Below the pieces are notes generated by a model that was not told where the DNA came from, made no database searches, and worked only from the letters and a program-made list of their open reading frames with translations. A stretch of 64,000 bases of DNA from Neophaeotheca triangularis (lineage: Eukaryota): contig BAAIJX010000032.1 in the NCBI GenBank assembly GCA_054600435.1, positions 124,001 to 188,000 on the forward strand, read 5' to 3'. Below, piece by piece: positions 36,890 to 50,830 of this stretch (positions are counted from its first letter, which is position 1; every line of letters begins with the position of its first letter). The position numbers were made by a program, and so were the translations under genes.

Positions 36890-39231
36890 ATGGGTTGTAG
36901 CTTTCTCGTAACGCAAAGTATGAATTCGAATGTTGAATGTAGCAAGTGTTCCTCTTGTGCAATGATAGCAGTCTCAAGGGCTTTAGTTCTAGACATGTTT
37001 GGGTAGAATACTAAGGTACCTTACAATTAATGCTATTTGAATCGATGATGGTCTTTTCGTGAGCGGGTAGGGGAGCAACCCAACCCAGCAGTGGCAGTGC
37101 CAGGACCGGTTCAACTTCGGCAGACTTTGAGTGCGTGCACGACGGTCCAAGCTTGAGGATACAAGAAAACCTCAACTTTCGAATTCGCGACCTGCACTCC
37201 AAACCATCAACCTCTACAACCACCACCACTTCCGCCAATTCTTTTCAATAGCAACCTTCTTGTGGTACTCTTCAGTCATGCCATACTCCAGCATGTAGTA
37301 GCTGACTGATAGCAATGGTAAGCACCGCTCCCGTCTCTTCAACTCACCTCTGGGGATGAAATCGCAACAACCGCAATCAAACTAGAGTCTTTGACCTCTC
37401 CGGAGGACTGAAACTGTACTTGCACGTCAGTCTGATAGTCGACCTCACCGCAGCATTTGAAAAGGTTACGAGTGTCCGCGCTGTCGCTAATGCCGATATC
37501 TAGGTCTTGACCATGAACACAATGCTATGAGAGGCTTGGCCTAGTGCCACTAAAGACGACACCACGAGCCTATCCTGGTCTTTTCTCCCAAGGGGTGGAC
37601 TAGATCCTCGTGGGACCACATGAAAGACGTGAGTACATCCTTTCCATCCCCACCTCACCTCAAACCACCTCATATGATGAACATTTCGTTTATATACGCT
37701 GGAAATTACCGACTGAGACATTTGTCGCTGGCGAAAACAAATGGCTAAATCTGATCCCTCCCTATCAATTGCAACTGCTGTCACGAAGAACTATCTTCTG
37801 GACATCTGCTGATATGCGTTCGCAACAGGTTGCTAGCAGTCAAGACGACAGACAGTGTTGCTGCCCGTCACGTGTTACCGGTATGCAGGTATCGCTCCTT
37901 GCCCCCACGGCACAGCCACCTGGTAAGCAACCTTCACCCTCCTCACCCCTTGCATCTGATGAAGCGGCACTGGGCTCCGACTCAAGTCATGACCGGATAT
38001 GCCATTTTGCGACAGGCCTAGAAAACCTCGTCCACTGATGCGAGTAACTGGTCGAAATAAGTGTGATCAACATGTCTGCACTCCTCGCTAACGCCTTGCG
38101 TCTCCAGGGCACACACTCGATCAAGGACGTAGTTGAATCGGTCCGCCATGACGCTCCCCATGAATACGCAAAGTAAGTTGCTTCTCTGCCTTTGCCGTCT
38201 TCGCCAATATTACATGATGATCCTTTAAGATGACGAGTCTTATCTGGCCTTGCCAATGCGGACACAACTTTTACTACCATTCATGCAAACCCTGATCACA
38301 CTTGCACCTCCAACTCTATAGAGTTTCATTGAGTTGACAGACAGCTCACTGACTTTCGCGCAGGGTACATCCTACCTCCTCAGCATTCAGCCCATTGAGC
38401 TTGCCTACATGATGATACGACTTTACCAAAAGACAAGCATATGTCCAAGCTCTTTGACCGGAGCGGAGACGAGAACTGTCATGTCTGATTGGCATCTCAT
38501 ACATACATCTTGCCATCGATGTTACCAACGCTCTTACTGACTCGGTCAGTGGACGCAGAGCTTGCGCATGGTGAGCCTCTCGACAGGCGGGCACCCATTG
38601 TGGTTGCATACTCCAATCAACTCGCAGGAGTCTTTGGTATGTACACACACTCTTTTCCATTAACACCCTTAGCATGATGACTTCATACAATCACGACGGT
38701 CGACATAGCAGACTAAAAGTCTGTATTGATGAGATGGCCCTTGACCGGGCCTATTTGCACTGATCTCTTCTATTCGCGAAATCTCAGCTTGCTTTCCGTT
38801 CTACACGATTCGGGCCAGCGCTGACTGCAACATTCAGACAATAACCACCGTTCCGTCACTCGCGAGGTGAGGGCTGTTCTTGCCCATGCTGTTTCGTGGG
38901 TACCAATTTCGGTGGCCAAACTTTCCTCTGGCACATTGTGGCTGCGCTTCGTGTCAGGGGGTGCTTTTTGTGATTTGGGACTTTGTTGTATGTGAAGCGT
39001 GGAGGTTGAGATGACAAGCGAAGGGTGTTACGTCTCGTGCGATGCGTAAGGCATGTCGAGAGGGCTTTGGTATCATTCATCTTCCGAACCATCACGGCGT
39101 GACCCTTTTTCGCGGTGGTAGAAGTAAAAGAATCCCGTATACACTCCATAACACCAACGCTTCAACCCAAGCAATTAAGATCGCACCTCCCACGATATCC
39201 AGTCATAATGCTGCAGCCGCCCTGCCCTCGC

Positions 39232-46200: not shown

Positions 46201-47407
46201 CCCATGCTGCCGCAAGCTTGGGAAAACTGTCGGGGGGGCTATTGGTTGGGAGACTTGGAGAATTGTAGACACTGCCTTTGTACTGCCTCAGCGGTGACAA
46301 GTTGATGGTTCCTAGCAACTTCTGAGGCCATGAGGTAGCGCACGCTTCCGACAGGGCAGTTGAGCCGCTGGCCTTTGACTAGGAAGTTGGCGTCAATTTG
46401 ACAGGATTCGATTGGTGATGGTCTGTAGGTGATATCGACTACTTGTTGTGCCAGGCAACCTTCGAAGTCTCGAGGAGGTGCATCCGGGCAGCACTGCAGC
46501 GGACACGTGCGCGCACGCGTCCGTGCACAGACGTGCTAAATTTACGCACAATGCGGGAAGTGCGGGAGCTAAGCCGGGAACACATATGGCAAAATAGACA
46601 GCACTCGGTGTTGTCGAATATCAAAATTGCGAAAAGTTTGCCGCTGATGGTGTGTTGCAATTCAAGTCGTCGAGCATGGTTTGGCGTGTCAATGCGTTCG
46701 TTCGTTGATATCAATGGTATCGAACACGCTTGCAGAGCATTCAGCCGTGGATCTGCTGAGCGGCTCGAACTTCTTCCCTCCCATAGCAATAGTCGATGGC
46801 TGAGCGCACCATCTGCTGTCGAGGCACTAGGAGGTACCGGACGAGCTGATATGCTCGAGGCTCTTTTCGAGTTTGGTCAGCTGGTGAATCGATATAGAGC
46901 GTAGATACAAGCGTAGCCCTTGCGAACGATGCCACAAAAGTACCCATTTGGTGCCGTATCATGTTGCAGCGGAAAGTTGAATCCATTCGTGCTGCTGTTA
47001 GCATGCTTCAAGCAGTACAGGCGCATCGCTCGGTAACCGCAAGCTCGAAGAAAATGATACTCTGGTCTTGAGGTAATTCAAACGATCGGTTAGCAGGTCG
47101 TAGCTTGAAAAATCTTCGATGGCCCACGTTACAGTACTAGTACCTCCCGAGTCCGGACGGACTTTAGGTAAGTAGTCTCCATGATCAAGGCGTTCCATCG
47201 TGACTCGTGGTTACTGTCTAGCCCTACTCAATGAAGGACCGTGCGAGAGTAGTTCTCATCGACAGGGATTCCCTGCCCCGATTGACAACGTTGGCAACCA
47301 CGCAACTCAGAAGTAGGCGGAAAAAAGGCTTTATTGCAGCATACAAGCTACATAAAGTGCTGCAAGGTAAACGCACGTCATAAGGGGCAAAGATGATGTT
47401 TGTAATA

Positions 47408-47545
47408 CGACACCTTACTCAGGGGTTCGCCGCTGATCGTAGCATTGCACCTTGAGGTGGATTCTTACCTGTGGAATTCGAACTCGACCCCCGCAAGAAA
47501 TTAGCGAGGCTACAGCAGCATGTGCATAACAGTAGGCTAACGTGG
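47408..47545 (-). pseudogene. Degenerate tRNA-Ser relic with canonical-position intron and candidate GT-AG insert in the acceptor stem
   Basis: On the minus strand: anticodon stem TTAGC/GCTAA, loop CT-ACT, ~23-nt insert, long variable arm, GAGTTCGAATTCCAC, then AG|GTAAGA..55 nt..AAG|GTGTCG. The 5' half is not clearly recognisable. Confidence 0.5.
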
Positions 47546-47623
47546 CTGGTACAAGATTAGGATTCCAGTTAGGAATATATACAGCAATCCCGAGGGTCGT
47601 CGTTCAATACAACATCAACTCCA

Positions 47624-47782
47624 GGCATCTTGGCGGAGCGGTTAACGCGGTATGCCTCGCAACGCCCACAATATTCTGCAGATCCCGAGACTAACAAACT
47701 CGAAGTCAGCCTGCTAGCACTCTATTGAGTCTCAGCCTAGCTGATCCCTTCGGGGGCGTGTGTTCGAATCACACAGATGTCG
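47624..47782 (+). tRNA. tRNA-Ser(GCT) with one spliceosomal-type intron (47650-47705) and one canonical tRNA intron (47717-47738)
   Basis: Spliced sequence GGCATCT TG GCG GAGCGGTTAA CGC G|TCAGC CT GCT A|A GCTGA TCCCTTCGGGGGC GTGTG TTCGAAT CACAC AGATGTC G. All stems pair (one G-U), it has the Ser long variable arm and G73, and T7 follows. Confidence 0.88.
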
Positions 47783-47783
47783 A

Positions 47784-47790
47784 TTTTTTT
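47784..47790 (+). terminator. Pol III oligo-T terminator
   Basis: TTTTTTT begins 2 nt after the discriminator base. Confidence 0.75.
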
Positions 47791-50102
47791 GCCGTTTCCA
47801 TGCAAGAAGATGCTCCTGCTCGTGAACAAGTATCCGATGTGAAGGTAGAAGAAGTTGGTATGAATAGCAAAAGATGAAATCCGCCAAGACTTTGAGCTAG
47901 GATCTCAGTTGGTTCAGGAGAGCAAAGACATGAGCTACTCGCATTTCCGCAGCGAAACGTTGTTGCTTTGAGTAGATGGCTCTGAGCTAGCAAGCTACAA
48001 CGAGCAGCCGTAGGCATTGAACCGGACTCTTCATGGCTTGGATATCGACGACGGTGCGCATGCTTCAAGCTGGTGCCCCGTTGCCCCGGAAGGTGTCTGC
48101 AGCGGAGTCGTGTCGTCTCAAAGTAATCCCGTTGCATGTCTCTCCATGCTGACCGGAAGATGTAAGGAAGAGGCACCAAGATGGCCAAGATCTACAGGCT
48201 CTCCGGGCGCTGCGTTGGGAAGAGACTACACGAGTAGAAGTTGTGGCCTTGCAAAGTCGGTTTGGCTACGAGGTTGTGCCATGCTTCTCATATGACGGAG
48301 TTTGAGGCAGCATTCTCATAGGCTGCGGAGGGTGCGTTTGCCTCTCAAGGCGCTTTCTCTTGGGCTCAGGTTTCGCCCATGCCGTAAACAGCGTCTAGTC
48401 CGGGACAGTCAGTTGCAGCGCAAGCGAGCCGGCATGAAAAGACATGCTTGGACAACGCCACGATGCCGATATCGCGATATCGCACACACGCCGCTCAATA
48501 TACCTCGATTGTGGGGCGAATGGCTTCTTCATTAGGGCGCTGCTGGTCGACGCCGTAGAGAAGCCATGTGCAGGCGTGTAGTGACTAGATTCAGGTGCAG
48601 TTGTCTCGGCGATTGAGAGCCTGCATTGCTGGGGTGTTTTGGTGATCCGGCTGCAGCTCGAGGCGATTCAACAGTATGCTTTTACAATCCTGTCTCCGAG
48701 CCACCTTGGTGAACAATGTAAGCGCAGTTGTCTGAGTAAAGTCGGTGGCAATGCGGTTGTTGTAGCTCAAGACATTCCCATAACCATGCGAACGTACTAG
48801 TATCTACAGTGCGAATGCGACAACTTATTAGCTCGACCAGACCCTTGGGGCCCTTGATACTTTTTGAGCCATAGTCGCACATTGGCGACCTGAAACTACG
48901 CCCCCTGCGACACAAGGCTGCTCACCCCGCCGGATAGCTACTGTAGGTCTTTCGACGCAGGTTTGGTTCTATCGCACGTGGCGTCCGAGCACAGCGAGGC
49001 CGAGAATTTCGCTCTAGCCGCCTAGGACAGAATTTTGGGGCGCCTGAGCTGATGTCTTTCACTAGTAACTGTCCGGTAATGTGTCAGAGCTGCAGCCCAG
49101 TCACGGGCCAGATCTTCTAGACGCTGGAACCTGAAGGTATTTCCCTAGAGCCTTAGATGTCTCGAGCTGCAAGTTGATATCGCTCCGGTATTTATGCCAG
49201 GGAGTCAGCACCGCGCTTTGAGAGCGAGCCTTGTAGTCTCTCCCAGCGGCTCAGGTGGGCTGAGCGCTCGCAATAGCCTAGGGTTATGAGGCTGGGCTTG
49301 GACTCTTGCTGCCAGATGAGCTGGCGCTTCGCAGGTGTAGGAGCTTACGAAGCACGCCCGGGGCGTAGCATTACGAGCCAACAAGCCCACTTCAAGTTTT
49401 CACCATCCATCGAATAGGTATTCTTCCAAGCATCAGTATGTCTGATTTCGGGACTGTCGTTTCATTCGTCTAGCATCAGCACTGGTCATCAAGAGAATTT
49501 GCTGGCGAAGATTATAGCTGCATGGGTCAACCATCGCCGTAAGGGTGTCCCATAGCCGCCTGGACTTCGAGCACGGCCCGAATCTGCGAGCTGCATGTAG
49601 TCGTGAGCGAGCAAACTGCAGCATATAGACGTAGGTATGGCACCGGACCTCCATGTCCGGAGCTGGATTATCGGCGTGCAAAAGATTGCATGCTCAGAGC
49701 TGGCGCCTCGGTAAGGATCTACAGCAACAGGGAATGTCGTTCGGGGATGAAAGGCTTTCTATAGCAACCGGAGAGAAAACGCAGATTAAATAGAAACAGC
49801 CAAGATCTACAAGCTCGCCGAAAGTCGCGAACTCCCCGAACGTTGCGTTGGCAGACGGATTGTAATTTGTGCCTACGGAAGCCGCTACGAGGTGGGTTTG
49901 ACTGTGAGATTCCAAATCAATCTGCCCACGGAAGGAGCTTCGGGGCAGCCTCCGCAGCGCTCGCAATTAGCGTCTATCTTCCTAAAGCTCTCTCGTTCAA
50001 AGTTTGACACTTTCTACGTAGTGGGCTGCTATAAAAATTCAAGTATTATATACAAACAGCAATTTTAATGTTCCATCGAATTGGCTTGTAATCCAAGCGC
50101 AA

Positions 50103-50324
50103 GACAACGTGGCGGAGGTAATTCTACACCACACCACCATAGATTGGTCGTCCAAGTTCTAACACTCTACCTCAGTGGTTAACGCGGTATGTGTTACCGA
50201 ATCCAGATTCATCATTGAATCATACGCTAACAACCACAAAGCCAGCCTGCTACTACCCCTCAATATAAGAGGTTGAGCTCAGCTGGTTCCTTCGGGAGCG
50301 TGTGTTCGAATCACATCGTTGTCG
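50103..50324 (+). tRNA. tRNA-Ser(GCT) with two spliceosomal-type introns (50118-50175, 50187-50241) and one canonical tRNA intron (50253-50280)
   Basis: Spliced sequence GACAACG TG GCG GAG|TGGTTAA CGC G|CCAGC CT GCT A|A GCTGG TTCCTTCGGGAGC GTGTG TTCGAAT CACAT CGTTGTC G. The acceptor stem is perfect and the cloverleaf is 81 nt. Confidence 0.88.
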
Positions 50325-50335
50325 CAGCAACATTC

Positions 50336-50341
50336 TTTTTT
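50336..50341 (+). terminator. Pol III oligo-T terminator
   Basis: T6 begins 12 nt after the tRNA 3' end. Confidence 0.65.
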
Positions 50342-50830
50342 GCGAACAATCCATGTTGTACAGACAGCTATCTTTCTTTTTCTTTTTGCTAAAAAGTAGT
50401 GAACCAAGACAATTTTGTATAGAATACTACTTGTAAAGGTACATTCTGGCAGTTGAAAACATATACATTCTGGGCGTCGCTGTCGAGAAAGGCATTGTAA
50501 GACTCAGCAGGGCAGTTCTTGTGAAGCTCGCTCCCCCCTTGGTGTTCTAAGAAGACCTTATCGTTCATCAGCCTAAACACCGCTATTTCTTCGATACTCC
50601 TCGCTCGTTATTGCGACTCCTAGATAGTCGATCAAGAGCCGGAGACATCAACTGCGAAGTCGTTCTGATCAAGACCTGCTCTGGTTCCCTTCCGTATTGA
50701 TTGTGGACTCTGGTGAGTATATGTTATCAAGGTACGACTACCCAGGGCCCATTGCTAGTTGGTACCGGATGAGTCTCCGCAAGGCCAACTAACCCAAGCC
50801 CTCCCAAAAGCCACCGAGTGAGGCATAGGT

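Follow-up and report, generated by a model that had tools for sequence, protein, structure and literature searches.

Two tRNA-Ser(GCU) genes of a filamentous ascomycete are probably interrupted by spliceosomal introns in their 5' halves

The stretch of DNA analysed here (64,000 nucleotides [nt] of Neophaeotheca triangularis, contig BAAIJX010000032.1, positions 124,001 to 188,000 of the forward strand; hereafter the window, whose own numbering is used unless another record is named) carries two interrupted tRNA-Ser(GCT) genes, both on the forward strand. Gene A (47624-47782) is interrupted by one GT..AG segment plus a canonical tRNA intron, and gene B (50103-50324) by two GT..AG segments plus a canonical tRNA intron. 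We consider it probable, from the sequence and its comparison with related DNA, that A and B are functional genes in the nucleus of a filamentous ascomycete, that they encode distinct tRNA-Ser(GCU) isodecoders and that they contain spliceosomal introns in their 5' halves. An earlier reading of the sequence (the original prediction) had described the two genes as belonging to an old, functional, intron-bearing tRNA family; the canonical introns in both genes, a D-loop intron in gene B and the oligo-T tracts downstream are features beyond it.

Gene A opens with an exon (nt 1-26 of the tRNA; 47624..47649) holding the 5' strand of the acceptor stem, U8, the D-arm, G26 and an intact A-box-like sequence, TGGCGGAGCGG. 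Between tRNA positions 26 and 27 (26/27) lies a 56-nt spliceosomal-type intron (GTATGC .. GACTAAC .. AAG; 47650..47705) whose branch A stands 11 nt before the end, whose junction is the first AG past the branch, and which contains no run of four or more T residues (T4+). Exon 2 (nt 27-37; 47706..47716) provides the 5' strand of the anticodon stem, TCAGC, and the loop CT-GCT-A. It is followed by a 22-nt canonical tRNA intron at 37/38 (47717..47738), reported by ARAGORN as i(38,22) once the 26/27 segment has been excised, and by exon 3 (nt 38-73; 47739..47782), which comprises the 3' strand of the anticodon stem, the long variable arm, the T-arm with its B-box, GTTCGAATC, the 3' strand of the acceptor stem and the discriminator G. 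A T7 run resembling an RNA polymerase III (Pol III) terminator stands 1 nt past the gene (47784..47790), and a TATA-like TATATAC about 48 nt upstream (47576..47582) is a possible upstream Pol III promoter element.

Gene B has the same plan with one further interruption. Its first exon (nt 1-15; 50103..50117) contains the acceptor 5' strand GACAACG and the start of the D-arm, the A-box being cut after TGGCGGAG by a 58-nt spliceosomal-type intron in the D-loop, at 15/16 (GTAATT .. TTCTAAC .. CAG; 50118..50175). Exon 2 (nt 16-26; 50176..50186) precedes a 55-nt spliceosomal-type intron at 26/27 (GTATGT .. CGCTAAC .. AAG; 50187..50241), in which the branch A keeps the spacing seen in gene A, 11 nt to the last intron base. 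Exon 3 (nt 27-37, with CCAGC and CT-GCT-A; 50242..50252), a 28-nt canonical tRNA intron at 37/38 (50253..50280; ARAGORN i(38,28) after two excisions) and exon 4 (nt 38-73, with the variable arm, the T-arm and B-box, the acceptor 3' strand CGTTGTC and the discriminator G; 50281..50324) complete the gene. A T6 run, again terminator-like, begins 11 nt past it (50336..50341), and upstream are TATATAC (about 56 nt away; 50047..50053) and TATAAA (50030-50035), both on the forward strand.

The introns of GTATGY..CTAAC..AAG form that the original prediction placed at exactly 26/27 in both genes (56 and 55 nt) are in the sequence as claimed. So are the stems it quoted for A versus B (acceptor GGCATCT/AGATGTC versus GACAACG/CGTTGTC, anticodon stem TCAGC/GCTGA versus CCAGC/GCTGG) and the pairs of the variable arm (CCC/GGG versus TCC/GGA); its distance of 10 nt from branch to intron end agrees with our 11 nt when the count starts from the CTAAC motif. 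The 37/38 position that defines a canonical tRNA intron is occupied by the 22-nt and 28-nt segments and not by those of 55-58 nt. Yeast tRNA-Ser(GCU) also has a 37/38 intron. The last 12 nt of the two 37/38 introns (47727-47738 and 50269-50280) resemble each other and fall inside a repeat family (D1), and the exon heptamer TCAGCCT recurs in the 37/38 intron of gene A; this may reflect a pairing requirement of the tRNA endonuclease.

When the GT..AG segments alone are removed, A and B become class II tRNAs of 81 nt with the anticodon GCT, a long variable arm, G73 and the T-loop TTCGAAT. Each has a 7-bp acceptor stem and a D-arm; positions 34-36 of the anticodon arm are GCT, and the loop of the T-arm fits TTCRANY; the variable region is 13 nt with a 3-4-bp stem, and a G follows the acceptor stem, in all four Ser genes known to us (A, B, and genes M and N, described below). 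The long variable arm and the G73 discriminator are identity elements for serine. After in-silico excision (56 nt from gene A; 58 + 55 nt from gene B) ARAGORN calls tRNA-Ser(GCT) in both genes, and when only one of the two segments of gene B is removed it gives nothing or a false Asn. On the genomic DNA of the window, ARAGORN finds no tRNA under default settings and only a bogus tRNA-Asn at gene A when introns are allowed, genomic DNA otherwise yielding nothing or bogus Asn/Glu; the Rfam tRNA model (RF00005) has no match at its gathering score in the whole window and none at E <= 10 in 47400-50600. Standard finders thus miss A and B, as had been anticipated, and because the interruptions are what defeats them, these failures are no evidence against tRNA identity.

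We also carried out an unbiased version of the in-silico excision scan that the original prediction had proposed. In about 202,000 trial excisions, every segment of the form GT..[CT]T[AG]A[CT]..AG of 38-130 nt, singly and in neighbouring pairs, was removed on both strands of the 64-kb window and of the related DNA (2.37 Mb), and the products were filtered for an anticodon in the normal place and at most one canonical intron. An acceptable tRNA resulted at only four loci: genes A and B in the window, and gene N and a tRNA-Asp(GTC) gene in the related DNA. Excision therefore does not make tRNAs by chance, and a chance origin of the cloverleaves is in practice excluded.

Interrupted genes of the same kind were found in DNA from other sources. 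A metagenome scan with a pattern of exon bases flanking a 40-70-nt gap, splice signals being left unspecified, matched 23 loci, 20 of them chance hits or bacterial sequence. The remaining three (L001, L018 and L020) all hold one gene, M: L001 and L018 are the same over 872 nt, and L020 is the same through the gene part. Gene M is a third tRNA-Ser(GCT), lacking a canonical intron, and it has two GT..AG introns even though the pattern that found it contained no splice signal: one at 15/16 (53 nt, GTAAGA..GACTAAC..TAG), the same site as the D-loop intron of gene B, and one at 28/29 (51 nt, GTAAGT..TACTGAT..TAG). A scan of viral contigs gave no matches. In a collection of prokaryote genomes, a pattern built on the 3' half matched a single locus, L024, in a 6.65-Mb record (G001) that is titled as an actinobacterial metagenome-assembled genome and is a chimera. 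The first part of G001, to about 4.2885 Mb, is about 70% G+C and accounts for all 45 Rfam tRNA hits of the record; from there to the end, its 2.37-Mb tail has 27-58% G+C with AT-rich blocks. Coding regions of the tail match those of the window at 67-81% identity in a scattered, mesosynteny-like arrangement, and the tail holds a homologue (G001 about 5755194-5755557) of a cluster of small nucleolar RNA (snoRNA) genes in the window, from which we take it to derive from a related but clearly different filamentous ascomycete.

Gene N, at L024, is a fourth tRNA-Ser(GCT), with a 57-nt intron at 22/23 (GTTCGT..TTCTGAC..CAG), a 15-nt canonical intron and a T8 tract. The tRNA-Asp(GTC) gene (locus L101; G001 about 4997798-4997935, forward strand) has a 59-nt intron at 26/27 (GTGAGC..AACTAAC..CAG), a 10-nt canonical intron, U1-A72, G10-U25, C38, G73 and T7 downstream. 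It is thus the architecture of gene A in another isotype, and the phenomenon therefore extends beyond serine tRNA. With introns allowed, ARAGORN found no ordinary, uninterrupted tRNA gene in the 2.37-Mb tail, its two odd calls including one on the Asp locus, and Rfam gave no tRNA hit in the tail apart from one partial match at 17.9 bits. A strict scan of the tail for T-arms gave nine candidates, three of them with a matching acceptor strand; a relaxed scan for the 3' half (T-arm plus anticodon arm) gave 151 candidates, mostly noise, and no further convincing gene. The tail also contains the 3' part of a Phe(GAA)-like tRNA (locus L097; G001 about 4934300-4934490, reverse strand) with a good anticodon arm, a T-arm and T6 behind it, in which ..CAG| and |GTGAGT border bits of exon at 15/16 and 24/25 and a T6 run stands upstream. 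Its 5' exon was found neither within 1.1 kb nor by motif in the 2.37 Mb, and the piece could represent either a copy in decay or a gene whose first exon is far away. The related record has no U6 match above E = 0.95, and the only 5S signal in its fungal part is a weak, sub-threshold match (G001 6071885-6072018, forward strand; 27 bits, 134 nt against a 120-position model).

The four Ser genes A, B, M and N (three fungal sources; 81 nt each when mature) align without gaps, and their differences respect the cloverleaf throughout. No base pair is broken in any of the 92 cells of the comparison (23 pairs in four genes). Nine of the 23 pairs vary, six of them by compensatory changes on both sides and three by one-sided changes between G-C and G-U or A-U and G-U. 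Among the 16 variable columns 15 are paired, though 35 of the 81 columns are unpaired, and the sole unpaired change is at D-loop position 16. In neutral simulations, in which the observed 10-11 differences were placed at random in gene A (20,000 trials per comparison), a mean of 4.4-4.7 pairs were broken, and all pairs were kept in 23, 41 and 25 of the 20,000 trials. The exons are 86-88% identical, whereas the interiors of the introns have diverged to the level of shuffled sequence; a repeat search pairs A and B only in the exons and splice signals, and beyond those signals the introns are as unalignable as had been noted by eye (global alignments that include the signals give z = 3.7 for A vs B at 26/27, with 500 shuffles, and z = 0.7 for B vs M at 15/16). 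These results, together with splice signals kept in all seven introns, bear out the proposal of the original prediction that both tRNA structure and splice signals are under purifying selection, and because of this selection A and B are unlikely to be pseudogenes. Its description of the family as old stands for the 15/16 intron, common to genes B and M, and for the phenomenon as such, but cannot be extended to the 26/27 intron, which is found only in the paralogues A and B and in the tRNA-Asp gene; genes M and N have introns at 28/29 and 22/23 instead.

All seven non-canonical introns (one in A, two in B, two in M, one in N and one in the Asp gene) are 51-59 nt long and begin with GT, the A of their CTRAY branch motif is placed 10-13 nt before the end, and in all seven the first AG past the branch is exactly the junction that restores the cloverleaf. 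Their 5' hexamers are GTATGC, GTAATT, GTATGT, GTAAGA, GTAAGT, GTTCGT and GTGAGC. For comparison, 134 mRNA introns from the tail (crude, unannotated guesses based on open reading frames [ORFs]) have a median length of 60 nt, starts of GTAAGT/GTGAGT type, a modal branch distance of 10-13 and ends in CAG, TAG or AAG; mRNA intron candidates in the window, likewise ORF-based guesses, have a similar profile at 47-70 nt. Fungal-type signals are thus present in all seven segments, at a length and spacing like those of host mRNA introns. A home-made search of the five introns of A, B and M for the central 4-bp helix of a bulge-helix-bulge gave no candidate in four; the fifth, the D-loop intron of gene B, gave only A/U-rich candidates, of a kind also present in 184 of 300 shuffles. 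Group I and group II self-splicing introns were ruled out on size alone, 51-59 nt being far too short. On these signals the segments are probably U2-type spliceosomal introns of the mRNA type, in genes that are functional.

The signals for transcription are those of type 2 Pol III genes in A and B: a B-box, downstream oligo-T and no internal T4+. Across the five interrupted genes the B-box is always intact and a T4+ run never occurs inside the gene. Four of the five have T6-T8 within 25 nt downstream, against a background chance of about 0.005 for T6+ in 25 nt, and gene M has T4, T4 and T5. The 15/16 intron splits the A-box of B and M, whereas A, N and Asp have it whole. Three of the five (A, B and Asp) have TATATAC 48-56 nt upstream (about 51 nt for Asp), which might be an upstream element helping to place transcription factors. 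The absence of T4+ from the introns was dropped as a Pol III signature in its own right, only 18 of the 134 mRNA introns having such a run. Given functional genes, the intact B-boxes, the T6-T8 tracts and the lack of internal T4+ lead us to favour Pol III as the polymerase that makes the precursor; otherwise this would be Pol II.

We propose that transcription, most likely by Pol III, would start from the intact B-box, possibly aided by TATATAC, and stop at the oligo-T tract. The spliceosome would then take out the 55-58-nt introns by means of an mRNA-like 5' splice site, the CTAAC branch and a first-AG acceptor, and only after this step could the D-arm and the stem of the anticodon arm take shape. 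Trimming of the ends would fall to RNase P and RNase Z, and removal of the 37/38 intron to the tRNA splicing endonuclease and ligase; CCA would also be added. The spliceosome is placed first because the mature domain cannot fold while the 5'-half introns are present; the splicing itself, its order and the polymerase are all inferred from the sequence.

Several observations weigh against this proposal. Splicing by the spliceosome is as a rule tied to Pol II; with only 15-26 nt plus leader, the 5' exons are very short, and they would be uncapped if made by Pol III; the D-loop intron cuts the A-box in B and M; because so few mRNA introns carry a T4+ run, its absence here is uninformative alone; uninterrupted Ser(GCT) genes elsewhere could supply the tRNA and make A and B dispensable; and, since positions vary among the Ser(GCT) genes of the three sources (26/27, 28/29, 22/23), the 26/27 intron cannot be called ancient. 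Pol II might instead make the precursor, by itself or within a longer non-coding host transcript, with the spliceosome acting as before and RNase P and RNase Z releasing the tRNA, as they do for tRNA-like elements and some small RNAs that Pol II makes. In favour of this reading are the coupling of splicing to Pol II, the interrupted A-box and TATA-like elements 48-73 nt upstream of A, B and Asp, and there is a precedent in the tRNA-Sec of Trypanosoma brucei, which is made by Pol II (PMC2943599; here and below, statements about published work refer to the accessible part of each article). We nevertheless judge transcription by Pol II unlikely: T6-T8 tracts lie 1-12 nt behind four of the five genes, against the low background chance given above, the B-box is intact in all five with no internal T4+, T4-T5 runs 14-40 nt upstream of four of the five are irrelevant to Pol II and fit compact Pol III units, and neither a long ORF nor a conserved host gene was seen around A and B.

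The identity of the splicing machinery and the vitality of the genes can be questioned in turn. Were the segments non-canonical tRNA introns cut by the tRNA splicing endonuclease, their GT..CTAAC..AG likeness being incidental, they would have company in Cyanidioschyzon merolae, nucleomorphs and archaea, whose tRNA genes have introns in the D-arm and anticodon stem, several per gene (PMC4090602), and our bulge-helix-bulge test is home-made and lenient. That test nevertheless gave no central helix in four of the five introns and in the fifth nothing better than shuffles, and the full set of spliceosomal signals at host spacing in seven of seven introns has a chance of roughly 6e-5 per intron by rough arithmetic. 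Moreover, the fungal tRNA endonuclease measures from the mature domain, which cannot form with the segments present, and we therefore hold cleavage by this enzyme to be very improbable. Equally hard to credit is that A and B are decaying pseudogenes or relics with insertions, their signals and stems being coincidence or recent history. Standard tools do miss both genes, and the Phe-like relative, 5'-truncated and without a detectable 5' exon, may imply that decayed copies of this gene type exist. Decay is nonetheless difficult to reconcile with 0 of 92 cells broken and six compensatory pairs (neutral P about 0.001-0.002 per comparison), with insertions that have diverged and yet keep three signals and exact boundaries in all seven cases, with the retention of terminators, and with the persistence of this architecture in related DNA that matches the window at only 67-81% identity in its coding regions. 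Spliceosomal introns in functional tRNA genes thus remain our preferred explanation.

Spliceosomal introns have been described in other fungal non-coding genes, namely those for U6 (a Pol III gene), U2, U5 and U1 and ascomycete ribosomal DNA (rDNA), tRNA not being listed in the part of PMC5855946 that is accessible; the determinants of such insertions are called unclear there (PMC5855946). The closest parallel is U6, in which mRNA-type introns were reported from Schizosaccharomyces pombe (Tani & Ohshima 1989, 1991, cited in PMC5855946). There, as here, a short, mRNA-like GT-AG intron sits within the gene for a small structured RNA, and U6 is made by Pol III and needs the spliceosome for intron removal before it can function. 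Unlike U6, the host in our case is a tRNA and not a component of the spliceosome, and the transcript also holds a tRNA-type intron; for this reason the explanation offered for U6, reverse splicing into an RNA at the catalytic centre, is not directly applicable. The introns of ascomycete rDNA (Bhattacharya et al. 2000, cited in PMC5855946) are similar in being of spliceosomal type, in non-coding non-Pol II genes of filamentous ascomycetes, and at positions that vary between taxa and so suggest repeated gain, but their hosts are large rRNAs made by Pol I, whereas ours is an 81-nt tRNA with internal Pol III elements and, in gene B, a cut A-box.

Among tRNA introns, those of Cyanidioschyzon merolae, nucleomorphs and Crenarchaeota are alike in number (up to three per gene), in location (D-arm and anticodon stem) and in being missed by default finders, and differ in being bulge-helix-bulge introns cut by the endonuclease, where we see GT, CTAAC and AG (PMC4090602, PMC3978253). 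In the accessible text of reviews of tRNA introns, non-canonical eukaryotic introns are only of the endonuclease type (PMC4090602, PMC3978253), and that of the 2014 review (PMC4090602) contains no word beginning 'spliceosom'; a 2023 review, 'The life and times of a tRNA' (PMC10275265), contrasts the two classes of intron as unrelated, and a 2025 paper on tRNA intron loss (PMC12530127) likewise treats them as unrelated. A full-text search of the literature found no description of spliceosomal introns in tRNA genes, most subscription journals lying outside its coverage. With the canonical eukaryotic introns at 37/38 our genes share the segments of 22, 28, 15 and 10 nt that A, B, N and Asp have at exactly that place; the segments at 26/27, 15/16, 22/23 and 28/29 differ from these in lying outside the anticodon loop, in measuring 51-59 nt and in their spliceosomal signals.

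The window itself was assigned to the nuclear DNA of a filamentous ascomycete on the basis of Rfam snoRNAs, protein look-alikes and ORFs. The snoRNA cluster (37670-38297, forward strand) consists of the fungal C/D box RNAs Afu_300, Afu_513 and snR75 (61-77 bits in Rfam), the best protein look-alikes of a 657-amino-acid ORF with a Usp domain are ascomycete clusters, and a DUF3425 ORF is also present. Of the Ser codons in three ORFs of the window with Pfam support, 28-40% are AGT or AGC; to our knowledge these two codons are read only by a tRNA with the anticodon GCU, and at this share of Ser codons the organism needs tRNA-Ser(GCU). The 2.3-kb spacer between A and B contains a 22-nt direct repeat, 91% identical (48184-48205 and 49799-49820); it is otherwise unique, with no ORF of more than 140 amino acids and no match in the related fungal DNA.

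What appears to be new is that the spliceosomal introns already seen in non-coding non-Pol II genes of fungi would occur in tRNA genes as well, beside introns of the tRNA type. If A and B are expressed as proposed, a single precursor of about 160-220 nt would pass through two unrelated splicing machines in sequence, and the spliceosome would act on a Pol III transcript outside its own parts. The recruitment of U1 and U2 to short, uncapped transcripts would then become directly testable, and repeated gain at 15/16 and 26/27 would offer a compact natural system for the study of intron gain. Because tRNAscan-SE seeks non-canonical introns in archaeal mode only (so described for version 2.0 in the accessible part of PMC8450103), such genes, perhaps essential isoacceptors among them, would be absent from fungal annotations and from analyses that relate codons to tRNAs. 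A bolder and more tentative reading, to which we give some but limited credence, is that the spliceosome is a routine part of tRNA biogenesis in this lineage, many or most nuclear tRNA genes having mRNA-type introns in their 5' halves at recurrent sites. Several isotypes (Ser, Asp and perhaps Phe) would then be affected, at the recurrent sites 15/16 and 26/27 and often with a canonical intron in addition; standard annotation would fall far short of the true number of tRNA genes in these genomes; the spliceosome would regularly have Pol III transcripts as substrates; and the recurrent sites would reflect repeated insertion, by reverse splicing, into abundant tRNAs.

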